DNA from: an uncultured virus (IMG/VR IMGVR_UViG_3300011240_000038)
Lineage: Duplodnaviria; Heunggongvirae; Uroviricota; Caudoviricetes
DNA length: 20,000 nucleotides
Direction: 5' to 3' (one strand)
Virus record (IMG/VR): IMGVR_UViG_3300011240_000038
Shown: piece by piece, positions 1 through 17,702 of the stretch
How the letters are laid out: the number at the start of each line of letters is the position of its first letter
Numbering within the stretch: the first letter of the stretch is position 1
Notes under the pieces: generated by a model
The model's input: the letters and a program-made list of their open reading frames with translations, nothing else
Told to the model about the DNA's origin: nothing
The model's database searches: none
Position numbers and translations under genes: made by a program

Positions 1-59
1 AATCTAGATGTATCTGGTCCCATAGTGCCAGTTACATTTAACTTTCTTTTTTTCTTCAT
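1..59 (-). CDS. 5' end of a hypothetical protein running off the window (MKKKRKLNVTGTMGPDTSR...)
   Basis: ATG at 59 on the minus strand preceded by SD GAGGTGAT (reverse complement of 65-72); frame open to the window edge. Confidence 0.6.
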   Translation of the reverse strand, partial: MKKKRKLNVTGTMGPDTSR

Positions 60-83
60 TATAAATCACCTCATTTGAAAATA

Positions 84-111
84 TTGACAAAGTGTGAATA
101 TATTATACAAT
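84..111 (+). promoter_or_regulatory. SigA-type promoter of the lipoprotein gene
   Basis: TTGACA (84-89), 16-nt spacer, TACAAT (106-111). Confidence 0.6.
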
Positions 112-144
112 GTAAATATAATAGAAAAGCATGGGGGTTATTTA

Positions 145-606
145 ATGAAGAAAATATTTAGTTTATTATTATGTGCAATAATGATATTAGGTCTAGTTGG
201 GTGTGGGGATAATGATATGAGCTCAGAAAAAAAGCAATTAATAAAGCAATTTGAAGAGGGTGTTGAAGATTATAAAACCGCATTGGAATATTTTAAAAAA
301 GATGATCATGAGAATAAAGGCAAATATTTAGATTTAGCTTTTGAAAAATTTAATGATATACTCAATATAACTAATGATGGTGATTTAACAGTACTTGATA
401 CTGGTTCAGAAAACTATAAATATTATTATGAACACTACTATTCAGGTAAACTTACAGAGATATATTCAAGCAATACAGATTTATATTTGGCTGATTACTA
501 TATGAGTTATGAACAACTTTTAGAAGAATGGAACAAAAATATAGATAATATGAATAATATTATTAAGGAATACAAAGAGACGAACAATAATGAAACTTCA
601 AAATAG
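145..606 (+). CDS. Putative lipoprotein (prophage moron-like)
   Basis: Start moved to ATG145 after GGGGG SD; MKKIFSLLLCAIMILGLVGC is a type II signal peptide with lipobox LVGC; own promoter and terminator. Confidence 0.8.
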   Translation: MKKIFSLLLCAIMILGLVGCGDNDMSSEKKQLIKQFEEGVEDYKTALEYFKKDDHENKGKYLDLAFEKFNDILNITNDGDLTVLDTGSENYKYYYEHYYSGKLTEIYSSNTDLYLADYYMSYEQLLEEWNKNIDNMNNIIKEYKETNNNETSK

Positions 607-608
607 TT

Positions 609-633
609 GACTAGGGAAACCTAGTCTTTTTTT
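609..633 (+). terminator. Rho-independent terminator
   Basis: GACTAGG-GAAA-CCTAGTC perfect stem followed by a T7 run. Confidence 0.85.
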
Positions 634-637
634 ATTT

Positions 638-665
638 GAAGGAAATTTATGGGATATGTAGAATA
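638..665 (+). promoter_or_regulatory. SigH-like promoter of the HTH gene
   Basis: GAAGGAAAT (638-646) and TAGAATA (659-665) fit the SigH AGGA...GAAT consensus and spacing. Confidence 0.55.
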
Positions 666-686
666 GTATATCGTAGAGGTGGTGTT

Positions 687-887
687 ATGGAAGTTAAAAA
701 TAAACTTAAAGAGATACGTATGCGAGAGTATATGATGGATTCAGGAGAGTTTGCTAAATTTTTAGGAGTTCCAAGAAGTACATATTCACAATGGGAAACT
801 GGAAATAATAATCCTACATTAAATAAGGCTTTTGAAATTGCTGAAAAGTTAGAAAGAAAATTAGTGGATATATGGTATTCAGAGTAA
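687..887 (+). CDS. XRE/Cro-family helix-turn-helix transcriptional regulator (66 aa)
   Basis: ATG687 after GAGGTGG SD; NKLKEIR...EFAKFLGVPRSTYSQWETGNNNPTL is a typical HTH_3 pattern. Confidence 0.85.
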   Translation: MEVKNKLKEIRMREYMMDSGEFAKFLGVPRSTYSQWETGNNNPTLNKAFEIAEKLERKLVDIWYSE

Positions 888-915
888 TATCATATATCCT
901 TATTTTTTATACATA

Positions 916-1009
916 AAATTCTAAAAAAATAAAATAAATTCTAAAATATAGGAAACATTTTAAAAAAACAAGCATATAAATATATTAAGAAGTTAGAAAA
1001 ATTTAGAAA
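916..1009. repeat. TTCTAA repeat cluster upstream of parM (candidate parC/operator)
   Basis: AAATTCTAAAA at 916-926 and 936-946; inverted TTAGAAA copies at 993-999 and 1003-1009. Confidence 0.4.
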
Positions 1010-1028
1010 TATTTATAAGGAGATTGAT

Positions 1029-1895
1029 ATGATTCTAGGAATTGATGTAGGAAATTATAGTGTAAAAGTTAATCCAAACATTAACGTAAAAAGTTTAGTG
1101 AGTACAGAAGAAAACATTTTAGGATCAGGTATAGTTCTAGAATATGATAATAAAAAGTTTGTTATAGGTGAGGGGAGCTTTGAAACTGAACTAAATAAGA
1201 GTAGTAAGGAGAACTTTCTACCAATGTTATACACAGGCATTGCATTAGCAAGTGAAGATGTGTTTAATCAAGTTGTTTGTGGATTGCCAATTAACCAATA
1301 CAAGGCGAATAAAGATGCACTTGAGAGAATGGTTAATGAAAACAAGATGAAAACAGTAAAACTAAATGGTAAGTCTAGAGAAATAGTAATTTCTGAGTTT
1401 AAAGTTTATCCAGAAGGAATAGGAGCTTATTACAGTTTATCTACTAATGAAGATGTAATTATAGTTGATATAGGTGGAAGAACTACTGATATAGCGTATA
1501 TATGTGATAAAAAGCACCACACGAGCTCTACTGTGGCAGTAGGAACACTTAATATATATAAATCTATATGTGATAGGTTAAACGGTGAGCATAGCTTAGA
1601 TTTGGACTTACAAATGGTAGATAGAATTATTCAAAAGGCTTCACTTAAAGTGGATAATAAAGAAGTTGATTTAAGATTTATAACGGAAATTCTTAAAGAA
1701 AATTTTATGAAAATTAAACAGGATTTAGATTTCAAGTTCCCAGCTAGAACTGAAAGAATAATATTAGTTGGTGGTGGAGCTAAGTTGTTTAGCAGGGCAT
1801 TTGCTAAAAGATATTCTAACTTTGAAATAGCAGATAATCCTTTATATGCTAATGCGATTGGATTTAAAAAGGTAGGTGAAAGTTTATGGCAATAA
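1029..1895 (+). CDS. parM: ParM/StbA-family actin-like partition ATPase
   Basis: Actin-fold motifs ILGIDVGNYSVK, VVCGLP, YPEG, IVDIGGRTTD, LVGGGA, ANAIG; SD AAGGAG. Confidence 0.9.
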   Translation: MILGIDVGNYSVKVNPNINVKSLVSTEENILGSGIVLEYDNKKFVIGEGSFETELNKSSKENFLPMLYTGIALASEDVFNQVVCGLPINQYKANKDALERMVNENKMKTVKLNGKSREIVISEFKVYPEGIGAYYSLSTNEDVIIVDIGGRTTDIAYICDKKHHTSSTVAVGTLNIYKSICDRLNGEHSLDLDLQMVDRIIQKASLKVDNKEVDLRFITEILKENFMKIKQDLDFKFPARTERIILVGGGAKLFSRAFAKRYSNFEIADNPLYANAIGFKKVGESLWQ

Positions 1896-2089
1896 AACCA
1901 ATAACCATAAGTTTTAAAAATAATGCAGAAGATAAAGAATTGAATTTATGGATAAATAGCCATAGCAATTACAGTGGATTCATAAAAGACTTATTAAGAA
2001 AGGCTATGCATGAGGAAAGAAAAGAAGGTGGAGAAGTTATAAAAAAGCAGGTTGGATCTAGCAATTTGATAGATTTAGGGGATTTTTAA
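1886..2089 (+). CDS. Small ParR-like (ribbon-helix-helix) adaptor
   Basis: Overlaps the parM stop; N-terminal strand-helix-helix pattern ITISFK...ELNLWI...SGFIKDLLRKAM; acidic flexible tail; position typical of type II partition operons. Confidence 0.6.
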   Translation: MAIKPITISFKNNAEDKELNLWINSHSNYSGFIKDLLRKAMHEERKEGGEVIKKQVGSSNLIDLGDF

Positions 2090-2091
2090 AT

Positions 2092-2129
2092 AAAAAATAG
2101 CCTAAATCCAAATGGGTAGACTTAGGCTA
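2092..2129 (-). terminator. Rho-independent terminator, minus-strand orientation
   Basis: TAGCCTAAATC (2098-2108) pairs with GACTTAGGCTA (2119-2129); A-tract 2092-2097 becomes the U-tract on the minus strand, where the single mismatch is a G-U pair. Confidence 0.7.
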
Positions 2130-2177
2130 GGAAGCTTAAGCATGCACTCCAGCGTCTACTCTACGCTTTCGCTTCAT
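2092..2177 (-). ncRNA. Candidate ~85-nt structured small RNA
   Basis: GC-richer island with nested stems (GAAGC 2131-2135/GCTTC 2171-2175; AGCGT 2151-2155/ACGCT 2163-2167) between a SigE-like promoter and a terminator; no credible ORF. Confidence 0.4.
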
Positions 2178-2182
2178 ACTTC

Positions 2183-2212
2183 AGCGTATGCTATAAATTT
2201 TGAAATGATAAC
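2183..2212 (-). promoter_or_regulatory. SigE-like (mother-cell) promoter
   Basis: Minus strand reads GTTATC-N16-CATACGCT, matching the ATa-N16-CATAcaaT consensus. Confidence 0.5.
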
Positions 2213-2254
2213 TATTTTAGCTCCAAATATTCAAAGTTTACAAAATGTTAAAAA

Positions 2255-2329
2255 TTAGAAAATAACTGCAGCACAAACAACCGCATAACAAATAAGGTAA
2301 CCACATGTAATTGCAAATGGAATAGTCAT
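2255..2329 (-). CDS. 24-aa hydrophobic peptide MTIPFAITCGYLICYAVVCAAVIF (not in ORF track)
   Basis: Strong SD GGAGGTGT (reverse complement of 2335-2342) before ATG2329; almost entirely hydrophobic. Confidence 0.6.
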   Translation of the reverse strand: MTIPFAITCGYLICYAVVCAAVIF

Positions 2330-2406
2330 ATAAAACACCTCCGATAAAATTTATTAAGTATTAATATCATTAACAAGATTCAATTAATTATTCAGGAGGA
2401 TCTATT

Positions 2407-2811
2407 ATGTTAAATAAAAAAAAGGTTTATTCGATTCAAGAATTTATTCAATACTTGGATGAAAAAAACATTAAAAAGACAGATAAACAAGTAGGGATAT
2501 TATTGAAAGATAGAAAATTTAAGCCTATATTAGTTGCAGTAACAGGAAATTTATTACACTATAGTGTAGCGTTAGCGGATGCATCTTCAGCTACGGGGAA
2601 AATTAGTGTTGCTGGTAATACCATATTTGGTATATGTAAAGAAGCTGCATTCTGGATATGTTTGATTATGTGTGCTATAGAAATAGTAAAAGCATTGATG
2701 AATGGGGATACGAAGAGTGTTAGTAAAGTTATAGCAAAATATATAGTAGCATATGGAGCTATATATCTTTTACCATGGTCATTCAATCTTATAAAAGATA
2801 TATTTGGTTAG
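2407..2811 (+). CDS. Small membrane protein, TrbC/VirB2 pilin-like
   Basis: SD CAGGAGGA; basic leader, ALA-D processing-like site, then two hydrophobic helices separated by a short charged loop (NGDTKSVSK). Confidence 0.6.
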   Translation: MLNKKKVYSIQEFIQYLDEKNIKKTDKQVGILLKDRKFKPILVAVTGNLLHYSVALADASSATGKISVAGNTIFGICKEAAFWICLIMCAIEIVKALMNGDTKSVSKVIAKYIVAYGAIYLLPWSFNLIKDIFG

Positions 2812-2823
2812 GAGGTATGAACT

Positions 2824-3120
2824 ATGATTAGTTACACTATTTCTGAATTTTTAGCAGTAATTGAACCAGCGGATAAAATTTCTTATATGGATGCAATAAA
2901 AAATATAGGGACTTTTTTCAGTTATCTTTTACACCCAAGTAAAATATTATTATTGTTATGGAATTGGACATTTGAATTATCGTATTTTATATGTTTACTT
3001 ATTGCTTTATATGGTTTTTTTATGGTGATGACAGGGGATAAAAGTAAAAGAAAATATTTAAGTGGTTCTCTAATAACTTATTTTTTTATTAATATTATTA
3101 ACTATATAATTATGGGGTGA
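2824..3120 (+). CDS. Small membrane protein with 2-3 TM segments
   Basis: SD AGGAGGT; hydrophobic segments flanking TGDKSKRKY; tightly coupled between the pilin-like gene and the ATPase. Confidence 0.7.
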   Translation: MISYTISEFLAVIEPADKISYMDAIKNIGTFFSYLLHPSKILLLLWNWTFELSYFICLLIALYGFFMVMTGDKSKRKYLSGSLITYFFINIINYIIMG

Positions 3121-3124
3121 TTAC

Positions 3125-5455
3125 ATGAAATTTAAATCATTGAAACTAAGTGATTATTTTGAAATAAAAAAACCTACGTATATTTATTTGAAACTTACAC
3201 CAGATAGTTCTATAAGAAACTATAATAGCAGTGCTATAGCTAAATCTATATCTCTTATGTATAAAAGCATATTCCAACACATAAAAAATGAAAATAAAAA
3301 AATAATATTTGAGACTAATTGTAAGGTTTCATATTTTATAAATATAACTAAAAAAGAAGTTACATTTTACTTCATAGTACCAAACTTTTATAAAGATTTA
3401 ATTAAAGAAAAAATACGTAACACTTGGAAACGAATAACTATAGATGAAGTAGATGCTATCAAAGAATTTAAAGGTGATTCAATAAAATATCAACTATATT
3501 ATAAAAAAGAGGATGCATTATCTTTAGCTGTAGATAAAAAGAATAATGATCCATTAAATTCTTTATTAAATGTAATAGAAATAATTAAGGAAGATGAAAG
3601 AATAGGAATATTTTATAATTTCATTCCAACATTTCAAGGTGATTGGAGAGGTAGTTATAAGAAAACTATATCTAAATTAGAGAGTGGTAAACCAGTTGAA
3701 AGAGATATCACTGGTTCAATTATAATTAGGAATATAGTTAGTTTTATATCAGATATATTGAAGGAAGCATTAGGCGTTATATTAGGAAATGAAGCAAAAG
3801 AAAATTCTAATTTAAGTTTTCTAGAAGCTGCAATGGGTATAGTAAAGAACTTTAATTTATCTAATGCTACAGAGAAGAAAAAGAATGCATTAATATTAAA
3901 GGGTCAGATAATAGTAGAAAGCGAATCAAAAGATAGGGTTAGAGCAACTACAAATGCTATTACAGTATGCCAAAGTTTTAAGGCTATAGAAGAAGATAAT
4001 GAGCTTAAATATAAAGAAATTAAAAATAAAATGAAGAATGTATGGTATACTACAGACTTCAAGATTAAGGGTGTAGAAGAAAGTAAATTTTCCATAGATG
4101 AATGTAGTAATTTCATTCAGTTACCAGGTAGAGAACTACAAGATAGATTTGGAGGAATTAAAAAAATTAATACACTTGAAACTGAAGTACCAGATGAACT
4201 TCAACAAGGTACAAAATGTATAGGGCATAATACTTATAAGGGAAATGTGACAAAAACTTATTTAACTACAGATAAAGATTATAAGAATTTAGCATTAGTA
4301 CCTATAGGGCCTACAAGAAGCGGTAAAACTACACTATTAGGAAATCTTGCAGCAGATAGTGTTAAATGTGGAGAATGTGTAATAGTTTTAGATTATATAG
4401 AGAATTGTGGATTGAGTGAAGATATTAAAGCTATGATACCCAAAGAGAATGTTTTTGAAGTTAATTTGTATGATACTAACAATTTACAAGGTCTTGGATA
4501 TAATGAAGCTATAGTTGATACAGATGATGTATTTAGACAATATGAGAGTGCTAAAAAACAAGCATCACAAGTGCTTGCACTTATTAATAGTATTAATATC
4601 AGTAATAGTGAATTTACTCCAAGAATGGAGCGATATTTAACAAGTGCTTGTCTAGTATCTTTTATACAAAAGAAGTCACTGAGAGATGTAATAAAATTAT
4701 TGCAGGAATGGCAGTTTAGAGAAGATATAATAAATACCATATCTAAGAACCAAAATGATAACTTGGAAGAATATATAGGGTACCTTAAAGAGTTGGACGA
4801 ATGGTCAAAGGCTACTAAAGATAATCCTTCTGAAAAAATAGGGACTAAAACAAGTTTGATAAGTGGAGTAGTGGATAGGTTTAATAAATTGAAATCTAAT
4901 ACTTATATGGAACTTATGCTTAAGAAAGATATTACGGATAATTTTAATCTTCTGGAAGAGATGGAGAAAAATCAAGTGATATTTATAAAAATGCCTGAAG
5001 TTATGTTTGGTACTGCAGAAGAAAGAGATATAATGACAACCTATTGGTTGACTAAAATTTGGATGGCAGCTCAAGCGAGAGCTTGGAAAATTACTGATAG
5101 ATATAAAAGAAAAACAGTTACAGTAATTGGTGATGAAATAGCACAATTAAAATCAGCAGAAGAATATATTGGTAATAGATTAGATCAAACCGCAAAGTTT
5201 GGAATTAAATTTGTGTTAAGTACTATGTATATTAATCAATTAAGAATTAGAGAAAAACTTAAGACTGCTAATACTAGTTATATGTTTATATCCGGTAGTG
5301 ATAAATCTAATTTTAAAGAATTGAAAGATGAATTTGAACATAGTGGATATACTTTAGAAGATATGTTAAATCTAAAAAGATATCATTCATTGAATTACAT
5401 TAAGCATTCAGAAGGATATTGGGCTGGCATTACAGAATTACCTAAACCTAATTAA
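3125..5455 (+). CDS. Large P-loop ATPase of the VirB4/VirD4(TraG)/HerA-FtsK superfamily
   Basis: Walker A GPTRSGKT (4307-4330), VIVLD strand, helical insertion, distal Walker B VTVIGDE, then TAKFG and LSTMYINQL where the family has RKxG and xTQ motifs. Confidence 0.75.
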   Translation: MKFKSLKLSDYFEIKKPTYIYLKLTPDSSIRNYNSSAIAKSISLMYKSIFQHIKNENKKIIFETNCKVSYFINITKKEVTFYFIVPNFYKDLIKEKIRNTWKRITIDEVDAIKEFKGDSIKYQLYYKKEDALSLAVDKKNNDPLNSLLNVIEIIKEDERIGIFYNFIPTFQGDWRGSYKKTISKLESGKPVERDITGSIIIRNIVSFISDILKEALGVILGNEAKENSNLSFLEAAMGIVKNFNLSNATEKKKNALILKGQIIVESESKDRVRATTNAITVCQSFKAIEEDNELKYKEIKNKMKNVWYTTDFKIKGVEESKFSIDECSNFIQLPGRELQDRFGGIKKINTLETEVPDELQQGTKCIGHNTYKGNVTKTYLTTDKDYKNLALVPIGPTRSGKTTLLGNLAADSVKCGECVIVLDYIENCGLSEDIKAMIPKENVFEVNLYDTNNLQGLGYNEAIVDTDDVFRQYESAKKQASQVLALINSINISNSEFTPRMERYLTSACLVSFIQKKSLRDVIKLLQEWQFREDIINTISKNQNDNLEEYIGYLKELDEWSKATKDNPSEKIGTKTSLISGVVDRFNKLKSNTYMELMLKKDITDNFNLLEEMEKNQVIFIKMPEVMFGTAEERDIMTTYWLTKIWMAAQARAWKITDRYKRKTVTVIGDEIAQLKSAEEYIGNRLDQTAKFGIKFVLSTMYINQLRIREKLKTANTSYMFISGSDKSNFKELKDEFEHSGYTLEDMLNLKRYHSLNYIKHSEGYWAGITELPKPN

Positions 5456-5472
5456 TATGCAACAATATTAGG

Positions 5473-5492
5473 AGCCAAGTACATGCATGGCT
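5473..5492. other. Putative hybrid attachment site (attR/attL), crossover near CA 5482-5483
   Basis: AGCCA-AGTA-CA-TGCA-TGGCT: imperfect inverted repeat centred on CA, where the host frame starts to look family-like (HAWLYNVNRIEP). Confidence 0.6.
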
Positions 5493-6507
5493 TTACAATG
5501 TAAATAGAATAGAGCCAGCGGTAAGAAGACACATTGAAAAAATGGGAATAAAAGTTAGATTTGTAAGCCGTGTAGTAGATGTAAATATGGAAGGGATTAA
5601 TATAAAGGGAATTTATCTTAGTAATGGTGAATATATAGAAGCAGATGCCTTTGTAGAAACTACTGGTTCTACAGGACCTATGGGAAATTGCTTACGCTAT
5701 GGAAATGGTTGTTCTATGTGTATTTTAAGATGCCCAGCCTTTGGACCAAGAGTAAGTATTAGTTATAGAGCAGGTATAGAAGATATAAAAGGTGAAAGAC
5801 AGGAAGATGTATTTGGTGCTTTCAGTGGATCATGCAAGTTGGAGAAGGATAGCTTATCAGAGAAAATAGTAAAACAGTTAGATGAAACAGGAGTAGTAGT
5901 ATTAAAGGTTCCACCAGAAGATATAAATACGGATAAGTTAAAGCAAAAGGTTTGTCAACAATATGCACTAAAGGAATTTGCGGAAAATATAGTACTTTTA
6001 GATACTGGTCATGCTAAGTTAATGACTTCTTATTATCCCTTAGATAAACTTAGAAAAATTGAAGGTCTTGAAGAGGCAAAATTTGTAGATCCATATGCAG
6101 GTGGTAAAGGAAACTCCATTAGATATTTATCAGTTGCACCAAGAAGTAATCAGATGAAAGTTGTAGGACTTGATAATTTATTCTGTGCTGGAGAAAAAAG
6201 TGGGCTTTTTGTAGGACATACAGAAGCTATAACAACTGGTTCATTAGCAGGACATAATGCTGTTAGAAATGAGCTTGGAATGCCACTTTTAACCCTTCCA
6301 AGAAATTTAGCTACTGGAGACATTATAGCTTATGCTAATGAAAAGGTTCAAACTACAGAAGGTAGAAGAAATAGATATACCTTTGCAGGAGCCGAGTACT
6401 TTAAGAGAATGAAGGATAATGAACTTTATATTTTAGAGTCAGAAGAAATTCAAAAAAAGGTGAGGAAGTTGGAGTTAGATAATATTTTTAATCAAAAATT
6501 AGTATAG
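5482..6507 (+). pseudogene. 3' portion of a GidA/MnmG-like FAD-dependent oxidoreductase gene split by the element
   Basis: Frame continues upstream of ATG5542 as HAWLYNVNRIEPAVRRHIEK; no SD before 5542; N-terminal GxGxxG Rossmann motif absent while ADAFVETTG and NLFCAGE...GHTEAITTGSLAGHNA are present. Confidence 0.75.
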
Positions 6508-6544
6508 AATACATCAAATTTAGAATATAAATCTATTTAACAGT

Positions 6545-6584
6545 AACCATCAAGATATATGATTTAGTATATCCTGATGGTTTT
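6545..6584. terminator. Terminator hairpin between convergent genes
   Basis: AACCATCAAGATATA (6545-6559) and TATATCCTGATGGTT (6568-6582), 14/15 complementary, T-tract follows. Confidence 0.75.
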
Positions 6585-6604
6585 ATTGATGAATTTTCAA
6601 TAAT

Positions 6605-7033
6605 TTATTTATATAAAAATTTATGTTTTAAAAATTTTATATCTATATTTTCGCAGTTAGCAATAGTGTTTATAGATAAACCTTCGTAATTAAGTATTAT
6701 TGACTTATCAATCAACAGCTCAGCTGCAAATTGATCAGCTTGCATTTCATATTTACCTTTAACTTGAGTAGTTTTACTTTCTAAAAAAAGTATATTTAGA
6801 TTACTATGCAATATAGCGTGGCCAAGTTCATGAGCACAAGTAAATAACATATCGATTTCACTTAATCTAATATTTAAGTGAATTATTTTATTTTTTGGAG
6901 CATATTGATAAAATCCATGAATAGACCCTAAATCTTCGTACATAACATTTATTCCAAGAGCATCACATAATTCTCGAGGATCATTAGTTTTATATTTTTT
7001 TACTAAGTTATTTACTAAATTTGAAATTTCCAA
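6605..7033 (-). CDS. ImmA/IrrE-family Zn metallopeptidase (anti-repressor)
   Basis: AHELGH (HExxH) and EMQADQFAAELL motifs; probable TTG start at 7033 after a G-rich SD; directly downstream of the repressor. Confidence 0.9.
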   Translation of the reverse strand: MEISNLVNNLVKKYKTNDPRELCDALGINVMYEDLGSIHGFYQYAPKNKIIHLNIRLSEIDMLFTCAHELGHAILHSNLNILFLESKTTQVKGKYEMQADQFAAELLIDKSIILNYEGLSINTIANCENIDIKFLKHKFLYK

Positions 7034-7086
7034 AATTATATTCCCCCCCAAAAACATCATCAAATTTTACGAAATAAAGTTTGAAA

Positions 7087-7530
7087 TTATTTTTTATATT
7101 TTTTAGGGGTATATTTTATCTTATTCATTTTCTTAGCATACTCAATTCCATTTTGAATAGCAGATTTTAATAATTCCCAGTCTTCATCATTAATAGGATT
7201 ACCGGAAAGCATAAGTCCTTCTTGATTTTCTAAAGACTCCAAGGTACTGTTAAAAATTTTCTCAATATCTTTTTTATCTTTGGGATTTAATTCTAAATCA
7301 TCAAAAGTTGATTTTTTAGGTGATGATATATCACTTCTACCAAGTAAGTAGTCTACAGATACGGAAAAAAAATCGGCAATTCTTTGAAGCAATTCATTTT
7401 CTGGTATTGCTTTATCATTCTCATATTTAGAAATTGAGCTATTATCTATTAAAAGAATATCTGCTAATGATTTTTGTGTTAATCCATGTTTTTTTCGAAG
7501 TTCTTTTAACCTAATACCCAGTGTATTCAT
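7087..7530 (-). CDS. ImmR/CI-like XRE-family repressor
   Basis: LGIRLKELRKKHGLTQKSLA...ISKYEN...IADFFSVSVDYLLGRSD; SD AGGAGGTG; C-terminal KYTPKKY typical of ImmA-cleaved Firmicute phage repressors. Confidence 0.9.
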   Translation of the reverse strand: MNTLGIRLKELRKKHGLTQKSLADILLIDNSSISKYENDKAIPENELLQRIADFFSVSVDYLLGRSDISSPKKSTFDDLELNPKDKKDIEKIFNSTLESLENQEGLMLSGNPINDEDWELLKSAIQNGIEYAKKMNKIKYTPKKYKK

Positions 7531-7553
7531 ATATTTACACCTCCTATAATTAT

Positions 7554-7581
7554 ATTATAACCATATTTGAAGTAAAATCAA
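7554..7581 (-). promoter_or_regulatory. Leftward promoter for repressor-immA
   Basis: Minus strand TTGATT-N16-TATAAT, overlapped by the first operator. Confidence 0.55.
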
Positions 7582-7849
7582 TATAAGTTGAAATAAAATC
7601 AAAAAAAATTCAATATGACTTGACAATTTGAATTTAATTCAATAAAATCAAAATATGAATATTGAATTAAATTCAAATATGGGGGTTGTATAAGAAATGA
7701 AGTATATTTAGAGAAATAACTCAATAATAGTAAATCACGTTATAATTAGAGTGCAGGCTGAAATATGTCTTTAACAAATGAAATATTATATTGAATTTAA
7801 ATCAATATAATATTTCAACAACAAATAATAAAAATTGAATTAAATTCAA
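7567..7849. promoter_or_regulatory. Six 15-bp palindromic operators TTGAA-N5-WTCAA
   Basis: Copies at 7567-7581, 7588-7602, 7628-7642, 7662-7676, 7791-7805, 7835-7849. Confidence 0.85.
7620..7648 (+). promoter_or_regulatory. Rightward (lytic) SigA promoter
   Basis: TTGACA (7620-7625)-N17-TAAAAT (7643-7648), with an operator filling the spacer. Confidence 0.8.
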
Positions 7850-7860
7850 GGGGAATCGGT

Positions 7861-8295
7861 ATGAATATGAATAAAAAAATTGAAACTATGCTTTATAACT
7901 TTAATCAAACGAAAGCAGAAATTAAAAATATAAAACTAGATATAGAGTTATTAGAAAATGAATATGATGACGGAATTGGTGTAAATTACGTGGAGAAGAC
8001 AGGAAAAACTAATAAAATTACTTCAACAGTGGAAAACATGATAATAAGAAAAGAGGCTCAAATTAACAGATTAAATTATGCTATAAAAGTTAAAGAAGCT
8101 GAAATAAAAAAGATTGAAAATGCTCTAGAAATTCTTACAGATAGAGAAAGAAGTATTATTGAAATGAGATATTTTCAGAAGGAAAGTAATAGAAATATTT
8201 CAGCAAAGCTTTATATTACAGAAGAATATGTATCAGCAATAAAGTCAAAAGCTATTAAATCTCTTGCAAATATATTCTTTATAAATTCTTTATAA
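7861..8295 (+). CDS. ArpU/RinA-family phage late transcriptional activator
   Basis: N-terminal coiled region, TNKITSTVE, C-terminal sigma-region-4-like HTH (IENALEILTDRERSIIEMRYF...ISAKLYITEEYVSAIKSKAIKSLA). Confidence 0.85.
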   Translation: MNMNKKIETMLYNFNQTKAEIKNIKLDIELLENEYDDGIGVNYVEKTGKTNKITSTVENMIIRKEAQINRLNYAIKVKEAEIKKIENALEILTDRERSIIEMRYFQKESNRNISAKLYITEEYVSAIKSKAIKSLANIFFINSL

Positions 8296-8355
8296 ATTCT
8301 TTATAAATTTCTTTTAAACTCTCTTTATATAATCGGGTTAAAGCGGTGCTAGAAT
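8275..8355 (+). promoter_or_regulatory. Late promoter: tandem 11-bp activator-binding repeats plus extended -10
   Basis: TTCTTTATAAA x3 (8275-8307) plus two degenerate copies to ~8329; TGcTAGAAT at 8347-8355; no good -35. Confidence 0.65.
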
Positions 8356-8772
8356 AATATCATCGCAGTGGTGATAAGTTATTAAAAGTTGAGTCTTAAG
8401 ATAATAAATTAGTTTTAAATTTTAAAATAAGAATAATAAAGTTTAGATTACTAATTTATCACTATGAGTTATGGTTAAAAAGTTTTATTAACAAATAAGA
8501 AATGGAGCTAAAGGAAAGGGGTGATAACAATGCGGTGACTTTCATATTAAGATTTATAAATTCTTTGAAATACATTAGGATAATTCAAAAAGAAAGAATA
8601 GCCTCTAATTTAAAGTAAATAAAAATATATATTTAAATTTTATTAGCTAAATAGGATCTAGATAAACCATTTCAATTTTAAAAACTAGTAACCAAAGTCT
8701 TAAACTGTGACAATGATTTTAATAAATAGCTAATAGATATTAAAAATATATAAATCAGTAGAGGAGGTAGAA

Positions 8773-9213
8773 ATGAATATAGTAGAAAGTATCAAAGAAT
8801 ATATAGGAACCTGTCCTTATCTAGCAAATATTAATGATGGTATTAATATTAATTACTTAGGTGAAAATACAGTATCCTATATGATAGAAGAACTTCCTAG
8901 AGAACAAATTTTAAAAAAGTATATTGATGGAACTAGTCTTAGACAATACTGTTTCATGTTTGTCAGTAGGGAAGTATGCGGACAAGATGTAGTACAAAAT
9001 ATAGCTAATAGTAAATTCTATGAAAACTTTGCTAAGTGGCTAGAACTTCAATCAGAGCTTAATAATCTACCAGTACTAGATAGTGGGAGAGTGGCACAAA
9101 AAATAGAAGCATTAACAAGTGGTTATGTTTTCGAAAAAAATCTAGATAAAGCACAATATAAAATAGAATGTAGATTGGTATATTACCAAGAAGGAGGAAA
9201 AAATAATGAGTAG
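8773..9213 (+). CDS. Phage tail terminator/completion protein (minor structural)
   Basis: SD GAGGAGGT; first gene of the tail operon, upstream of the tail tube; KKYIDG...RQY.F and AQYKIECRLVYYQE resemble A118-like minor structural proteins. Confidence 0.6.
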   Translation: MNIVESIKEYIGTCPYLANINDGININYLGENTVSYMIEELPREQILKKYIDGTSLRQYCFMFVSREVCGQDVVQNIANSKFYENFAKWLELQSELNNLPVLDSGRVAQKIEALTSGYVFEKNLDKAQYKIECRLVYYQEGGKNNE

Positions 9214-9700
9214 AGAATCAATACAAAGACATCAAATAGCAGATTATATAAATATAGGTGGATCAACAGGTGTAGAAAAATATGAATTAATGGGAGCTGG
9301 ATTTAATACATTAGATGAAAATCCAGCAGCTCAACTTGATACTAAAGTTTATATTAACGATAAATCATCGTCAACTACAATTAAGTCATACCAAACACAA
9401 TTCCCATTCACATCAGATTTAATTAAAAGTGAAGGGGCAGTAATGGCATTATACAATGTTGGAAGAAATCATCTTACAGGTGCAGATGCACAATTTGACT
9501 ATGTTAAAGTTGAACTATTTCAACCAATAGAAGGAAGTGAGAATACTTATAAGGCTAGAAAATTTATAGTAAGTTGTGAAGTTGCTGGATTAGCTGGAGC
9601 AGGCGGAGAAACTATTGTGGTATCAGGAAACTTAAATGCAGTAGGAGATTTTATAGAAGGTACATTCAATACTGCAACAAAAACATTTACTGCAATTTAG
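9206..9700 (+). CDS. Major tail (tube) protein, siphovirus type
   Basis: 164 aa; YELMGAGFNTLDENPAAQ...YIND...TIKSYQTQFPF and GTFNTATKTFTA; position before chaperones and tape measure. Confidence 0.75.
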   Translation: MSRESIQRHQIADYINIGGSTGVEKYELMGAGFNTLDENPAAQLDTKVYINDKSSSTTIKSYQTQFPFTSDLIKSEGAVMALYNVGRNHLTGADAQFDYVKVELFQPIEGSENTYKARKFIVSCEVAGLAGAGGETIVVSGNLNAVGDFIEGTFNTATKTFTAI

Positions 9701-9715
9701 TAGGAGGAATATTTA

Positions 9716-10057
9716 ATGAATATTAATGGAATTGAGCTAGAATTAGATATATTTGATGCCGATGTTGCAGAAAAATATGATAAAGCAATAAAAAAAGTAA
9801 TGAATATAGAAGAAGAAACAAAGGGTATGTCAATTGGAGAAGGGATAAGAACTCAGTGCAAAGCCATCTTTAAAGTTTTTGATGAACTTTTTGGACAAGG
9901 TACTCATGAAAGAGTATTTGGAGATAAAGTTAACTTACTTGAATGTTTAAAGGCTTTTGAGGCTCTAATAACAGGCATAAATGAGAAAAATAAAGAAATT
10001 GAACTCATTGCTAATAAGTATTCTTCTAATAGAATTCAAAGACGTTCTAAAAAATAA
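9716..10057 (+). CDS. Tail assembly chaperone
   Basis: 113-aa acidic helical protein between tail tube and Gp15-like gene; C-terminal NRIQRR. Confidence 0.65.
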   Translation: MNINGIELELDIFDADVAEKYDKAIKKVMNIEEETKGMSIGEGIRTQCKAIFKVFDELFGQGTHERVFGDKVNLLECLKAFEALITGINEKNKEIELIANKYSSNRIQRRSKK

Positions 10058-10653
10058 TGAATATTTTAATTGATGTTTTACCTCGAAAAGTTGAAATAGA
10101 TAATAGAGAATATAAGATTAATTATGATTTTCGTACATCCATTTTGTTTGAGATAATGATTCAGGATGATGAGCTTGATGATAAAGAAAAGATATATAAT
10201 GCTCTTCTTCTATATTATCCAGTAATACCAGATAATTTAGAAGAAGCAATTAAACAAATTCTTTGGTTTTATAGAGGTGGAAAAGATATTAATGAAGGAA
10301 GTAGTGGAGTATCTATGGGTAAGAGTACAAGAGCATATAGTTTTGAATATGACGATGACTATATTTACTCCGCTTTTCTAACCCAATATGACATAGACCT
10401 TCAGGATATAGAAGATTTACATTGGTGGAAATTTAAAGCCATGTTTAGAGCTTTAAAGGAAGACAATGAAATAGTTAAGATTATGGGATATAGATCTATG
10501 ACTATAAATACCAATATGAGCAAAGAACAAAAGGATTTTTATAGTAATATGAAGAGAATTTATGCTATTCCAATGAGTAAATCTAAAAAACAAAAGGTAA
10601 CAGAAATTGAAAATGCTCTTATGGAAAATGGAGACTTAAGGGGAATACTTTGA
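10057..10653 (+). CDS. Bacteriophage Gp15-family tail assembly protein
   Basis: INYDFR, YSFEYDDDYIYSAFLTQYDIDL, LHWWKFKAMF, IMGYR motifs of the A118 gp15-like family. Confidence 0.85.
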   Translation: MNILIDVLPRKVEIDNREYKINYDFRTSILFEIMIQDDELDDKEKIYNALLLYYPVIPDNLEEAIKQILWFYRGGKDINEGSSGVSMGKSTRAYSFEYDDDYIYSAFLTQYDIDLQDIEDLHWWKFKAMFRALKEDNEIVKIMGYRSMTINTNMSKEQKDFYSNMKRIYAIPMSKSKKQKVTEIENALMENGDLRGIL

Positions 10654-10675
10654 TTTTAGTATTCTAACTATAAAA

Positions 10676-10717
10676 ACTAATAAAAAGTGCTTATAAAACT
10701 AGGCACTTTTTATTAGT
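10676..10717. terminator. Intra-operon terminator/attenuator hairpin
   Basis: Perfect 15-bp inverted repeat ACTAATAAAAAGTGC (10676-10690)/GCACTTTTTATTAGT (10703-10717). Confidence 0.7.
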
Positions 10718-10734
10718 AAAGGTAGGTGATTTGC

Positions 10735-10872
10735 ATAGTAAAAGTAAAATGTCCATTTTGTAATAAATTATTAATTAAAGCTGATTACATCAAAGGAGAA
10801 ATAAAATGTAGTAGATGTAAGAGGTTAATAAATATAGAAATAGAAAAGCCAGAGCTTAGAGCCACACCCTAG
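10735..10872 (+). CDS. Mu Com-like zinc-finger protein (~45 aa, not in ORF track)
   Basis: VKVKCPFCNKLLIKADYIKGEIKCSRCKRLINIEIEKPELRATP* with CxxC-x15-CxxC; SD AGGTAGGTGA; no in-frame ATG, probable ATA start at 10735. Confidence 0.75.
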   Translation: MVKVKCPFCNKLLIKADYIKGEIKCSRCKRLINIEIEKPELRATP

Positions 10873-10914
10873 AGTAGTGAGCCGTAGCCTGCTTTATAAA
10901 AGGCAGGTGATATT

Positions 10915-13086
10915 ATGTCAAATACAAGTATAAATGAAGAGATAAATTTAACATTAAAAAGTATATTAGAAAATTTAGAATCACAAGGTGAAGAAGCTAA
11001 AGAGAAAAGTACAAAAATCATTTCTAAATTAGTTACTGGAGCAGGAAAAGAAATAATTAAGGCTAACTCCGTTGCTATGGGTAAAATTGGACAAGGGTTA
11101 AACAAAGGGTTTTCTAAGATAAATTTCTTTGAGTCTATAGCGAAAACTTTTGAAGAAAAAGTAGGAGGGCTTTCAGAAAAAGTAAGAAGAACTTTTAATA
11201 CACTAAAAACTGATATTAAGCTTTGTACAATATTAGTAACAGATGTAATGAAAGAAACAAAGTGGTTTAAAATGGCATCTTCAACTATAGATAGTGCTAA
11301 AAAGGCTTTTGAAAGAATAGGCTCTGAAGTAGGAATATCAGGAAAAGGAGCTTTTCTAAAGATTGCTACTGGGGTCGGTAAAGAAGGAGCAAGTGCGCTT
11401 ATAAATATATCATCTAAAGTTGGAAAGGTAGCATCAACGGCTTTTAGTGGTACTATTAAAGCTATTGGAAAAGTTGGATCTTATGGAATAAAGGCTGGAG
11501 AACAGTTTGCACAAGGAGTATCTAAAATAGCTGATTTTAGTCAAAATGCAGGGAAAGAAATAGAAGACTTAAATGTATCAGCAGCAACTATGGAAGATGG
11601 ATTAGGCCGTGAAGTTACTATATTTAAAAGCTCACTTATGAGTCTTGGAAAAGATATGGGTGATAGCATAGATGGCCCATTAAAAGAAATAACAGCTTCA
11701 GCAACAGGGATGATTGGACAGCTATCTTCAGCATTCCAAGAAGGTGGATTTGAAGGACTTGCAGGTAGTGTTGGAGATGTATTTACTCAAGCAATTACAG
11801 GCATAGCTGACAAGGCTCCTGAATTTATGAATATTGCAGTTTTGATTATAGAATCATTAATAGCTGGATTCCAAGAAAATATGCCGTTAATAGCAGAATC
11901 ATCAATACAGATAATAATGCAGCTAGCTGAGGGTATTATTACCATATTACCTAGTATATTTGAGCTAGGAATTACTTTAATATCTGAATTGTTATTAGGA
12001 TTAGTAGAAGCTATTCCACAGTTAATAACTTTAGCACAAGAATCTATTATAAGTATTATGACATTGATAACGGAAAATTTGCCATTAATTATGGAAAGTG
12101 GATTTCAAATTGTTTTAGCACTTATAAATGGAATATCTGAAATGTTGCCAGAGTTAATACCGCTAGTAATACAAGCCATAACAACTATTATTACATCTAT
12201 AGGAGAAAATTTACCACTTATACTTCAGAGTGGTATAGATATTCTTGTGGCACTTATTAATGGAATAGCAGCAATGTTGCCAGAGTTAATTCCAATGGCT
12301 GTACAAGCTTTGTTAAATATAGTAGATACCCTCATAGTAAATCTTCCACAAGTTATAGATGCAGCTATTAAAATAATAATGGCTTTAATACAAGGAATAA
12401 TTGGAGCATTACCACAATTAATTATGGAAATACCAAAGATAATAAATGGAATAGTATTAGCAGTCATAAATAATTTGCCAGCAATTATAAGTGCGGCAAT
12501 TCAAATAATAATGGCTTTAATACAAGGACTAATTATAGCAATTCCTACGTTAATAGGTAATATACCCACTATAATAGCTGCAATTATAGGAGCTTTTGCT
12601 AAAGCTGATTGGAAACAAATTGGTACAAACTGTTTGGAGGGCTTAAAAAATGGTCTTATAGCAGGGGTTAGTGCAGTAGTTGATACAGTAAGAAATGTAG
12701 CCAGTAGTATAGCAAATGGATTTAAAGACTTTTTTGGAATCCATTCACCATCTACTCTATTTAGAGATATGATAGGTAAAAACCTTGTTAAAGGTATCGG
12801 TTTAGGTATTGATATAGAAACTCCAAATCTTGAAAAAGAAATAGGTGGTAATCTAGAGGATCTAACAAGAAAAATGAGAGCTACAATTGATTTTGAAACT
12901 ACTAAGGTTTCTGGCAATATGGCAATGAACTCTAGTTATAGAGCTGCTATGGAAACTCCATATTCCATAGTAAATAATAATGATAACGGTGTAAATGAAA
13001 TTATTAATATATACCAACCAGTAAAATCACCATCTGAAGTTGCAAGAGCAATAAAAATACAAAGAAAGGAGCTTGCATTTGGATAA
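10915..13086 (+). CDS. Tail tape measure protein (723 aa)
   Basis: Ala/Gly/Ile-rich helical protein with ~11/22-residue Pro-punctuated repeats and FFGIHSPS motif; canonical position. Confidence 0.9.
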   Translation: MSNTSINEEINLTLKSILENLESQGEEAKEKSTKIISKLVTGAGKEIIKANSVAMGKIGQGLNKGFSKINFFESIAKTFEEKVGGLSEKVRRTFNTLKTDIKLCTILVTDVMKETKWFKMASSTIDSAKKAFERIGSEVGISGKGAFLKIATGVGKEGASALINISSKVGKVASTAFSGTIKAIGKVGSYGIKAGEQFAQGVSKIADFSQNAGKEIEDLNVSAATMEDGLGREVTIFKSSLMSLGKDMGDSIDGPLKEITASATGMIGQLSSAFQEGGFEGLAGSVGDVFTQAITGIADKAPEFMNIAVLIIESLIAGFQENMPLIAESSIQIIMQLAEGIITILPSIFELGITLISELLLGLVEAIPQLITLAQESIISIMTLITENLPLIMESGFQIVLALINGISEMLPELIPLVIQAITTIITSIGENLPLILQSGIDILVALINGIAAMLPELIPMAVQALLNIVDTLIVNLPQVIDAAIKIIMALIQGIIGALPQLIMEIPKIINGIVLAVINNLPAIISAAIQIIMALIQGLIIAIPTLIGNIPTIIAAIIGAFAKADWKQIGTNCLEGLKNGLIAGVSAVVDTVRNVASSIANGFKDFFGIHSPSTLFRDMIGKNLVKGIGLGIDIETPNLEKEIGGNLEDLTRKMRATIDFETTKVSGNMAMNSSYRAAMETPYSIVNNNDNGVNEIINIYQPVKSPSEVARAIKIQRKELAFG

Positions 13087-13933
13087 GTATATAGATATTA
13101 AATTAGAATGTAATGGCAAGATTTTAGAGATTGGCAAGGATAAATTATACAAATTAATAAATATAGAAGGAATCTCTAGCTCAGAATATAGTGTAGATAT
13201 TGTAAATAATGCACAATTTGATGGTGGGACTGTTAAAAGTAAAAGAGTAGAATCAAGACTTATAACTATTACAGCAGAATATCCATCAACAGAAGATACA
13301 GAAACTAGAAGACAAAACCTAATTAGATTTTTTAATCCTTATTTAACTGGAAAGTTATATGTAAACTACTCTGGAGTTAAGAGGGTAATTAATTATGAGG
13401 TAGCAGGATTTAAAGATAGTAGAGAGAATTTATATGATCCACTTAAATTTATTATTAATCTGATATGTCCTAATCCATTTTTTAAAGATGAGAGAGAGTT
13501 TAGTAAAAATATGGCTGGTAAAATTAATAGTATTACTGTACCTTTCACTATTCCGGCAAGTGGTATGATTATGTCGGCTAAAGTATTGAGACAAGAGGCT
13601 ACAATAATTAATAATGGAGATAAAGATACAGGGCTGATTATCTCATTTATAGCAAAAGGTGAGGTGAGCAACCCAAAGATAGAAAACTTAACTACAGGAA
13701 AATTTTTAAGGATAGTAGTGGACTTGATGCCTGGTGATATTCTCACAATTAATACGAATAAAGGGAATAAGATGATAGAACTAAATGGGAAAAATATTTC
13801 TCAAAAAATGGATCGTTCTAGCTCTTTTATTGACATGCAGGTAGGAGAAAATATATTAAAATATAGTGCTGATAAAGGATATACAAATCTTAATGTTTAT
13901 CCAAAGTGGACAGCTGAATTCTTTGGGGTGTAG
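13079..13933 (+). CDS. Distal tail protein (Dit)
   Basis: Follows tape measure; LICPNPFF, INNGDKDTG, GDILTINT, GENILKY patterns; TTG13079 is 7 nt after SD GAAAGGAG. Confidence 0.8.
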   Translation: MDKYIDIKLECNGKILEIGKDKLYKLINIEGISSSEYSVDIVNNAQFDGGTVKSKRVESRLITITAEYPSTEDTETRRQNLIRFFNPYLTGKLYVNYSGVKRVINYEVAGFKDSRENLYDPLKFIINLICPNPFFKDEREFSKNMAGKINSITVPFTIPASGMIMSAKVLRQEATIINNGDKDTGLIISFIAKGEVSNPKIENLTTGKFLRIVVDLMPGDILTINTNKGNKMIELNGKNISQKMDRSSSFIDMQVGENILKYSADKGYTNLNVYPKWTAEFFGV

Positions 13934-13936
13934 GAC

Positions 13937-14989: not shown

Positions 14990-14990
14990 A

Positions 14991-16178: not shown

Positions 16179-16194
16179 AGGGGGAGGTAATAAT

Positions 16195-16500
16195 ATGTTG
16201 TATATGGATTTGGATATTGAAAAAAAAAATAATGGATTTTATACAGAAGATATACATGGGATAGAAAAATGTGAAACTATACTAGCACAAGAGGGACTAT
16301 TAGTAGATGAAGAACTATGGCAGCATCTGTTAGTTGTAGAAGAATGTAAATTTATCGGTACAGTAGAACAAAGAGAATATACTATTTTAGATAAAGATTT
16401 ATTTGAGAAAATAATACAACCAGTAGATACTAAACCTCAACAACCTTTACTAGAAGAAAGGCTTGCTGCTCTTGAAACGTTAATGATGGGAGTGATATAG
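16195..16500 (+). CDS. Putative tail fibre assembly chaperone
   Basis: Acidic 101-aa protein right after the fibre; GFYTEDIHG and EERLAALE motifs; SD GGGGAGG. Confidence 0.6.
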   Translation: MLYMDLDIEKKNNGFYTEDIHGIEKCETILAQEGLLVDEELWQHLLVVEECKFIGTVEQREYTILDKDLFEKIIQPVDTKPQQPLLEERLAALETLMMGVI

Positions 16501-16647
16501 ATGAATCCTTTTTATAACTTTTTAAAAAATATGTGGATTATGAGAAAAGCTGATGAAGAGTATCTTCAAGCTAGAGTTGGTAAGAATCAAATAACCCAGG
16601 AAGAGTATAATGAAATAGTAGCAATGAAACAAGTTCAGGAGCAATAG
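16501..16647 (+). CDS. XkdX-family small phage protein (48 aa, not in ORF track)
   Basis: MNPFYNFLKNMWIMRKADEEYLQARVGKNQITQEEYNEIVAMKQVQEQ* with ITxEEYxEI signature; SD GGGAGTG. Confidence 0.75.
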   Translation: MNPFYNFLKNMWIMRKADEEYLQARVGKNQITQEEYNEIVAMKQVQEQ

Positions 16648-16673
16648 AAGTATATTGTGAAATGATTTAATAG

Positions 16674-17697: not shown

Positions 17698-17702
17698 TTT
17701 AC

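Follow-up and report, generated by a model that had tools for sequence, protein, structure and literature searches.

A predicted relaxase-less DNA translocation cassette beside the attachment site of a temperate Clostridium phage

A cassette encoding a putative DNA-binding protein, two small membrane proteins and a secretion-type ATPase, preceded by an actin-like gene, forms the last genes of a temperate Clostridium prophage in the DNA analysed here, a stretch of 20,000 nucleotides (nt) from an uncultured tailed virus (IMG/VR record IMGVR_UViG_3300011240_000038) that is called the window throughout. Judged by protein family and gene order, it is the relaxase-less Clostridium member of the phage DNA translocation operon. 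We estimate the probability of this identity, together with a role in handling DNA at the membrane, at about 60 %; the figure does not cover the purpose of the cassette. The original prediction, made from the letters of the sequence, had treated the module as peculiar to this element. It is instead a widespread phage cassette and already in print: the part of the article by Pathria et al. (2012; PMC3357382) available to us describes a 'DNA translocation operon' of the Bacillus phages 0305phi8-36 (orf200-207) and SPO1 (gp27.3-27.9), with a MobC-like relaxase (orf200/gp27.3), a coupling ATPase free of transmembrane (TM) segments (orf201/gp27.4), a VirB6-like membrane protein (orf203) and an MreB/actin-like protein (orf207/gp27.9). 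This record is obscure and leaves the cassette unexplained, and within the literature found, subscription journals including the SPO1 genome paper being outside the search, it alone names gp27.4. New here are the relaxase-less form in a temperate Clostridium phage beside attP, the split into core and accessory genes across 117 loci, the ribbon-helix-helix (RHH) protein that goes with the motor, an arginine swap in the ATPase and an association with SpoIVA.

The module closes a tight run of plus-strand open reading frames (ORFs; window 94-5455). The ORFs for ParM and for the proteins of 67, 134, 98 and 776 amino acids (aa), on which the original prediction was built, were all found in their places:

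1029..1895, plus strand: ParM-type actin-like ATPase (Pfam ALP_N 3.2e-19, MreB-like_C 1.7e-11, ParM_N 5e-8; phrog_691, 'partition protein', 5.7e-52)
1886..2089, plus strand: putative RHH (ParR-like) protein of 67 aa (phrog_4223 4.4e-8), with a 10-nt overlap with parM
2072..2129, no strand assigned: stem-loops behind the RHH gene (inverted repeat I5; minus-strand terminator 2129-2098, 13 pairs and a T run)
2255..2338, minus strand: hydrophobic ORF (24-27 aa; MTIPFAITCGYLICYAVVCAAVIF) behind a GGAGG ribosome-binding site, convergent with the module
2407..2811, plus strand: VirB2/TrbC-like membrane protein of 134 aa (from hydropathy and a 50-sequence alignment, A3)
2824..3120, plus strand: membrane protein of 98 aa, predicted as a hairpin of two TM segments (hydropathy, alignment A4), ending 4 nt before the ATPase gene
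3125..5455, plus strand: FtsK/HerA-superfamily ATPase of 776 aa (phrog_5156 6.8e-95, full length)

The family assignment starts from the ATPase, which matches phrog_5156 ('unknown function') and for which no Pfam or NCBIfam family was found. A tblastn search of 50,697 phage records with the window protein resulted in 88 relatives. Among these are proteins of Clostridium phage phiCp-D (40 % identity) and a Terrisporobacter phage (32 %) as well as many full-length relatives from Bacillus and Geobacillus phages at 20-25 % identity, including the lytic SPO1 group; SPO1 gp27.4 itself was found at 5e-17, along with the copies of CampHawk, TP-84 and D6E. Using the CampHawk copy as query, we recovered 146 records, with SPO1 gp27.4 at 95.5 % identity and ORF201 of 0305phi8-36 at 2e-23. 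On the strength of these matches, the window ATPase is assigned to the SPO1 gp27.4/0305phi8-36 orf201 family, which is moderately large, with 608 cluster representatives at E<=1e-3 among 1.84 billion.

More distant comparisons were weak and pointed to secretion-type motors. A profile of 83 family members matched DptH (6.2e-5), TrwB (2.3e-3) and DotL (6.1e-3) in the PDB and, weaker still, STIV B204 (0.01), HerA (0.023) and VirB4 (0.035), and the single ATPase sequence gave no PDB match at E<=10. Pfam searches of 49 representatives detected TrwB_AAD_bind weakly in 11 and DUF87, the HerA central domain, in one; the window protein had neither. The neighbours of the ATPase in the ESM Atlas carry TrwB_AAD_bind, DUF87 and TraG-D_C. 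Hydropathy analysis revealed no TM segment in the ATPase, and the N-terminal ~380 aa of 25 members gave no consistent Pfam family at E<=1, only scattered chance-level matches; DUF8128, a lead from the ESM Atlas for this domain, did not reappear in that test. We classify the protein as a soluble secretion-type motor of the FtsK/HerA superfamily, in which the P-loop domain follows an N-terminal domain of ~380 aa that belongs to no known family. Its predicted architecture is nearer to VirB4 than to VirD4, and by sequence it fits neither definition. The original prediction of a VirB4/HerA-like ATPase together with a pilin-like protein holds for the superfamily and for the pilin-like gene ahead of the motor. 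The VirB4 families of Pfam and NCBIfam matched neither the window protein nor any of the 49 relatives.

The N-terminal domain is common to the ATPases of apparent conjugative elements, because an hhalign comparison of the phage family with eight chromosomal ATPases (819-911 aa) spans columns 12-777 (probability 99.8, E 3.4e-28). Of the eight, three have an M23/SLT wall hydrolase as neighbour and one a Replic_Relax gene. The full-length chromosomal relatives in spore-forming Bacilli, at loci L164, L165 and L167 (bifunctional M23/SLT hydrolase) and L166:1296-4747 (Replic_Relax), may be conjugative-element cousins of the phage cassette.

The motor itself looks active. As the original prediction had pointed out, the window ATPase carries TAKFG (689-693) and STM (699-701), and both are indeed unusual: of 83 diverse members, 65 have Arg and 15 Ala at position 690, and at position 701, 70 have His, 11 Gln and two Met. 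K401, D670 and E671 are invariant in the same 83 sequences, and the window protein has a GPTRSGKT P-loop and the DE pair. All 18 sequences without R690 have R398 in the P-loop, whereas all 65 with R690 have Gly or Asn at position 398. This perfect pairing, together with the invariant K401, D670 and E671, argues for an arginine relocated within a working site and not for decay, so that an arginine moved into the P-loop appears to compensate for TAKFG. The Ala690 form is clade-wide (23 of 25 close relatives) and Met701 occurs in 14 of 25 sequences of the nearest sub-clade; the R398/R690 swap may trace to a single event in one clade.

To define the partners of the ATPase, we ran local hidden Markov models (HMMs) built from the window proteins on the ORFs of the fetched loci and counted the 117 loci in which the ATPase is full-length and preceded by 4 kb or more of sequence. 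The pilin-like family is present in 112 of these, the hairpin family in 91, the RHH family in 74 and ParM in 41. The order is ParM, RHH, pilin-like, hairpin and ATPase, with ParM in the lead at 40 of its 41 loci and behind an RHH gene at the remaining one; the RHH gene is duplicated in five loci and the pilin-like gene in one. The core of the cassette is therefore RHH, VirB2-like, hairpin and ATPase, with ParM as an optional front end. The ParM assignment passes the Pfam cut-offs (ALP_N 70 bits versus 26.3, ParM_N 33.6 versus 27.4), and the local ParM family includes the ParM-like gene of the lytic SPO1-like phage CampHawk, where the order is ParM, an RHH-like gene, small TM genes, ATPase and Replic_Relax. 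In four Paenibacillus-type loci (L112:7648-8745, L024:1238-2317, L029:5855-6937, L031:5870-6949), a gene of about 360 aa, recognized as tubulin/FtsZ-like from the motifs G.GQ.G.N and GGSGSG alone, takes the ParM slot directly before pilin-like, hairpin and ATPase genes; no ParM or RHH-family gene was detected in these four.

The original prediction had joined a ParMR pair and the ATPase into one module, of which the ParM part stands only as an option and the 'ParR' part has to be reassigned. The RHH gene is kept in 44 of the 76 loci without ParM, and its HMM matches TP-84 gp45 (2.8e-20) and 000TH010 gp44 (5e-15), both from phages without ParM; the protein is thus no less a companion of the ATPase cassette than of ParM. 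We infer the ribbon-helix-helix, ParR-like nature of the 67-aa protein from its sequence pattern, as there is no Pfam match, and regard it as a probable DNA-binding adaptor. No clear parC repeat array was found upstream of parM, where short TTCTAA repeats (916-1010) are no commoner than chance (35 matches, 31.8 expected).

The two membrane proteins are recognizable mainly by their topology. The 134-aa family (alignment A3) shows a cytoplasmic N-terminus, a signal-like segment ending in A-x-A, two hydrophobic helices and a short GD..K loop, which is the topology of a pilin with a predicted cleavage motif. Pfam TrbC did not match the window protein and matched one of 50 family members (E 0.0055). 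The gene at the same position beside the ATPase of plasmid pCLD, which is 25 % identical to ours, passes the TrbC cut-off (28.5 bits versus 27.9), with weak local HMM links between the two families. pCLD, a large C. botulinum plasmid (L159, 126150-128950), carries only this TrbC/VirB2-family gene and the ATPase, and its relatives do likewise by tblastn; no other type IV secretion system (T4SS) genes were found within 12 kb of the pair. The 98-aa family is predicted to form a hairpin of two helices around a short basic loop, which reads G-x-KKG-K in relatives (alignment A4), and neither Pfam nor PHROG matched the window copy. An N-terminal 'SIxEF' motif that seemed common to both membrane proteins was dropped, since it is not conserved in the hairpin family.

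A pilin-like protein, a hairpin protein and a ~780-aa ATPase in this order mirror virB2-virB3-virB4, and the signal-like cleavage motifs are conserved in the pilin-like family. The cassette might accordingly be read as a short pilus or a protein-export pore for adhesion or release, in which the ATPase pulls the VirB2-like subunit from the membrane as VirB4 does, with no part for DNA. Tip, stalk or wall-spanning parts are missing, however, and the close association with an RHH protein and with filaments that segregate DNA suggests that the cargo is DNA; we regard the pilus as the most improbable of the readings considered here.

We also weighed whether the module consists of two unrelated neighbours, that is, a ParMR partition pair for an extrachromosomal phage and a separate leftover of conjugation, with no joint function. 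In the window, a gap of 317 nt separates parM-RHH from the membrane and ATPase genes and holds the small antisense gene with its own terminator. The product of this gene resembles the type I toxins that stabilize Clostridium prophages; Rfam gave no match in window 1-8000. Such a chance arrangement would also fit the presence of ParM in only 41 of 117 loci, the 57-kb phage-plasmids of C. botulinum among the close relatives and the reduced pair on pCLD. On the other hand, ParM holds the first place in all but one of its loci, including those of lytic SPO1-like phages without a plasmid state, a tubulin-like gene occupies the same slot in four others, and the RHH gene remains with the ATPase where ParM is absent. 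The ATPase is no decaying leftover either, because its catalytic residues are invariant across the 83 diverse members. We therefore consider two independent neighbours quite unlikely.

The cassette lies at the very end of the phage genome. Window positions 636-5455 form the final set of operons in the ~57.7-kb prophage of a temperate siphovirus, and the upstream context was taken from G001, an IMG/VR provirus record of 72,254 bp (CheckV 100 %) with 99.1 % identity to window 66-20000 over 19,936 nt. The first 52 kb of G001 are a complete temperate siphovirus. A large serine recombinase at the far left end is accompanied by genes for regulation and replication (CI- and Cro-like regulators, YqaJ/RecT, a DnaC-like protein, SSB), head (small and large terminase, SPP1-type portal, scaffold, major capsid protein), tail (a 1106-aa tape measure, a 1536-aa tail protein) and lysis (XhlA, holin, amidase), then by an 805-aa SIR2-like protein and finally by the window genes. 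The SIR2-like protein (weak SIR2_2 match; G001 47370-49787, L157:7370-9787) lies between the lysis genes and the module and may be a defence gene.

On the right, the prophage ends at 5480/5481 inside a host GIDA-like gene, and the module ends with it. This agrees with the element boundary of the original prediction: the translation of 5452-6507 can be aligned, at 71 % identity, to residues 85-425 of a GIDA/TrmFO-like protein that is intact (425 aa) in another Clostridium (L020), the homology starting at nt 5482 (codon 85), and contigs from RNA libraries (4 runs, 4 studies) match the window from 5481/5482 onward only, with the uninterrupted gene continuing upstream. Since these contigs carry the uninterrupted gene, strains with an empty site exist; none of them covers the module itself, which says nothing on its expression. 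The remaining features at the two ends of the run are:

94..606, plus strand: lipoprotein-like ORF (lipobox LVGC; likely start at an internal Met at ~145; weak lipoprotein-family matches only), probably an accessory prophage gene before the module
636..887, plus strand: XRE-type helix-turn-helix (HTH) regulator (Pfam HTH_3 3.7e-11), likely true start at ATG 687 behind a GGTGG ribosome-binding site
5456..5489, no strand assigned: right prophage junction (attR), host homology from 5481, core ACATGCATG
5482..6507, plus strand: 3' part (codons 85-425) of the prophage-split host GIDA/TrmFO-like gene for an oxidoreductase dependent on flavin adenine dinucleotide (FAD), 71 % identical to the intact L020 protein

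Integration took place at the core CATGCATG in the GIDA-like gene via the large serine recombinase, and in the excised circle the module would adjoin attP and the recombinase gene. The palindromic core CATGCATG represents codons 83-86 of the gene and is common to C. sporogenes-type prophages whose ATPase is 60 % identical; same-site junctions of such prophages in opposite orientation lie at L133:13150-13290 and L007:10170-10310 (L020:13806-13898 compared). Because the centre of the palindrome is GC, the recombinase could integrate either way. As long as the prophage does not excise, the host gene here lacks its first 84 codons; in L020 and L070 it is adjoined by a gene for a PRK05802-type FAD/NAD-binding protein. 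Similar surroundings are found elsewhere. In 135 loci, the 2.5 kb that follow the ATPase gene most often encode XRE regulators (36 loci, usually on the other strand) or large serine recombinases (16 loci). An amidase-type lysin is located ~3 kb upstream in 41 of 116 loci, and of 73 viral contigs, 17 stop no more than 1 kb past the ATPase. A homologue of the window HTH regulator was detected by tblastn in 18 of 73 loci, upstream of the ATPase in the rows seen and mostly on the same strand, with several exceptions on the opposite strand (e.g. L017, L019, L021, L028, L043, L062).

The complete siphovirus upstream bears directly on a role in conjugation-like spread, in which phage DNA would be exported to neighbouring cells or coupled to a T4SS resident in the host. 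This is how the operon is read in the accessible part of Pathria et al. (2012; PMC3357382), and the homology of the ATPase to the coupling-protein/VirB4 class, the pilin-like partner and the Replic_Relax nickase of SPO1-like phages speak for it. However, Pfam searches found no relaxase or T4SS gene in the window or in the 52 kb upstream in G001, nor a relaxase anywhere in the 72-kb record. VirB6, VirB8 and wall-hydrolase partners were likewise missing from the window and upstream G001 except for the phage lysis amidase, although no search was aimed at a homologue of orf203. A tblastn search of the other loci with the CampHawk Replic_Relax protein (CampHawk_128; E<=0.01) matched only itself, as a single query of low sensitivity. 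The absence of these genes and the dismissal of classical conjugation in the original prediction are thereby upheld, now for the upstream region as well, where no conjugation or relaxase cluster is present. Conjugation-like spread also leaves the restriction to spore-formers unexplained, and we rate it as very unlikely.

This restriction was seen in phages and in genomes. The hosts of the phages in the two tblastn results belong to Bacillus, Geobacillus, Lysinibacillus, Brevibacillus, Alicyclobacillus, Clostridium and Terrisporobacter, which we take to be endospore-formers; such hosts account for 88 of 88 records with the window query and for 145 of 146 with the CampHawk query. Neither result contained phages of Staphylococcus, Listeria, Enterococcus, Streptococcus or lactic acid bacteria, and SPO1's own family infects several of these genera. 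Of the genome contigs, all 68 loci are from Bacillota, except one contig binned as Bacteroidota. The outliers with relatives, namely this contig from a 'Bacteroidota' metagenome-assembled genome (L008, 34 % GC), a Rhodopseudomonas-labelled protein and a Microcystis phage record, may be binning or labelling errors or weak matches. Among the phages and genomes searched, the module is thus not common in non-sporulating taxa, in line with the original prediction.

The ability to sporulate was then approximated by the presence of SpoIVA. Of 401 sampled Bacilli genomes, 272 (68 %) carried SpoIVA and 62 matched phrog_5156 (E<=1e-15); SpoIVA was present in 61 of the matching 62, and the exception matches the C-terminal half only. 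Fisher's test, which ignores kinship, gave p = 1.6e-10 for SpoIVA versus any match and p = 6.8e-4 when only the 19 genomes whose match was rated full-length from the table are counted. Eleven of 300 Clostridia genomes matched (four full-length, one strong half-length), and SpoIVA was found in all four of the strong matches tested, the SpoIVA baseline having been taken for the Bacilli sample only. The host distribution fits a role in spore entrapment, without being proof of it. Bacillus and Clostridium phages can hide their genomes in spores, and to our knowledge only the phi29-type phages have a known route for their DNA into the forespore, one that relies on borrowed host proteins. According to the available part of Magalie et al. 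(2026; PMC12991052), SPO1 forms such virospores, and its ParM (gene 27.9) is suggested as an aid to spore entrapment.

From these components we propose the following mechanism. The RHH protein would mark or bind the phage DNA and, where present, ParM filaments (TubZ-like in some relatives) would carry it to the membrane or pole. The hexameric ATPase would dock via its private N-terminal domain on the two small membrane proteins, and it would either hold double-stranded phage DNA at the membrane or pump it across. With regard to purpose, we tentatively rank first the placing or keeping of the phage genome in the forespore as a virospore, because this would agree with the hosts found, with the occurrence of the cassette in lytic as well as temperate phages and with its dispensability in the laboratory. 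A membrane-tethered segregation of an extrachromosomal (replicating or plasmid-state) phage genome in growing cells comes next and is possible, if doubtful; close relatives include 57-kb C. botulinum 'plasmids' with terminase and portal genes, which are phage-plasmids. Similarly speculative is a dedicated spore-entry device, in which the RHH protein tags the genome, filaments push it to the sporulation pole and the ATPase, seated in the septal membrane by the pilin-like and hairpin proteins, pumps double-stranded DNA into the forespore independently of or alongside the host SpoIIIE. If true, it would explain why lytic and temperate phages both retain the cassette, why it is dispensable in the laboratory and why the hosts found were endospore-formers only. 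In joining a DNA-positioning filament to a secretion-type motor, the cassette is a candidate for forespore DNA entry that lends itself to tests with SPO1 and B. subtilis. Should the idea of spore entry prove wrong, the cassette would still represent a widespread minimal relative of type IV secretion, with its 608 cluster representatives, without a known job.

Several points weigh against this proposal. The proposed docking of the ATPase on the membrane proteins is deduced from gene order. The only deletion in print, that of the 0305phi8-36 operon, caused no laboratory growth defect, and its purpose is left open in the accessible text (PMC3357382). ParM is missing from about six in ten loci, and in the window the parM-RHH and membrane/ATPase genes may be transcribed apart because of the terminator and the antisense gene between them. 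Met701, where 81 of the 83 relatives have His or Gln, could weaken catalysis, and the VirB2 link is weak for this copy (Pfam TrbC in no window protein and one of 50 relatives). The restriction to spore-formers is confounded by phylogeny: shared host ancestry could give the same pattern, and the SpoIVA baseline of the Bacilli is high (68 %). Furthermore, the sporulation-type promoters of the original prediction were not recovered, as a scan of window 1-5500 (plus strand) for SigE, SigF, SigG and SigK, using consensus strings, gave 0 matches. Finally, the module sits in an accessory region after the lysis genes and near the SIR2-like gene, where defence genes also sit.

This last point leads to a different role, superinfection exclusion or an anti-phage or anti-plasmid activity, in which a membrane-anchored ATPase of a prophage or lytic phage blocks or expels foreign DNA. 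The position between lysis genes and attP would suit such a system, as would the SIR2-like gene upstream in G001 and an AAA and subtilase pair upstream in L133. A weak PADLOC match to MADS mad8 (6.9e-7) and the weak PDB profile match to DptH (6.2e-5) point in the same direction, and so does the dispensability for laboratory growth, as far as the available part of Pathria et al. (2012; PMC3357382) reports it. The mad8 match was rejected as a generic P-loop match with no other MADS part present, and the remaining genes of the module match none of the PADLOC system models. In addition, the gene order is kept across very distant phages together with RHH and ParM/TubZ-like partners, plus the nickase in SPO1-like phages, unlike the rapid turnover of defence islands. 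We consider a defence role unlikely and favour DNA handling at the membrane.

Downstream of the host gene, the window contains a second phage-derived region (6605-18657), a siphovirus tail cluster that lacks a head but has a switch and lysis genes of its own. Encoded in it are an ImmA-like protease, an XRE repressor, a RinA-like activator, tail completion, tape measure and Dit proteins, a Gp37-type tip and a fibre, followed by XhlA, holin and a GH25 lysin, with no gene for a terminase, portal or capsid protein. The cluster is a candidate F-type (monocin-like) tailocin or a prophage remnant. Its XhlA/holin stretch (17182-17461) is 91 % identical over 280 nt to G001 45813-46090 in the lysis cassette of the neighbouring prophage, and these direct copies, ~26 kb apart, could recombine. 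Just after the tail-cluster lysin, window 18762-18980 encodes a 72-aa LexA-type DNA-binding domain alone, without the protease domain.

Compared with known systems, the front of the cassette resembles a type II ParMRC partition system in that ParM passes the Pfam cut-offs and a small RHH-type gene overlaps the 3' end of parM. It differs in having no clear parC array and in an RHH gene that follows the ATPase cassette and not ParM. The motor has its best weak matches among the TrwB/VirD4/TraG coupling proteins (TrwB in the PDB at 2.3e-3, TrwB_AAD_bind in 11 of 49, the same families among the ESM Atlas neighbours), but the window ATPase has no N-terminal TM anchor, carries an extra N-domain of 380 aa and comes with no relaxosome. 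HerA is set apart by the DUF87 match, which is absent from the window ATPase and present in one of 49 relatives, and by a PDB value of 0.023.

The virB2-virB3-virB4 core of T4SS is similar in gene order and sizes, in a soluble two-domain ATPase of ~780 aa without TM segments, in a pilin-type first protein and in the full-length homology to ATPases beside wall hydrolases in chromosomal elements. In the virB order virB2-virB3-virB4, the hairpin protein stands at the position of VirB3. The cassette departs from this core in the lack of a Pfam VirB4 match for the window protein and 49 relatives, in a PDB VirB4 profile value of 0.035 and in the other T4SS parts, which were not found. By description, it can also be likened to the archaeal Ced DNA import system, a minimal VirB2-like pilin with a HerA/VirB4-like ATPase that moves DNA without a relaxase; Ced is archaeal, cellular and not viral, and includes the VirB6-like CedA.

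The closest counterpart is the operon of Pathria et al. By Pfam in the window and upstream G001, our cassette differs from it in having no MobC/Replic_Relax relaxase beside the ATPase, and it belongs to a temperate Clostridium siphovirus with a serine recombinase, lies next to attP and has a clearer pilin-like partner. Both share the same ATPase family, the same actin-like partner family with small membrane proteins encoded between the two, a place in the accessory region of a phage genome and spore-forming hosts.

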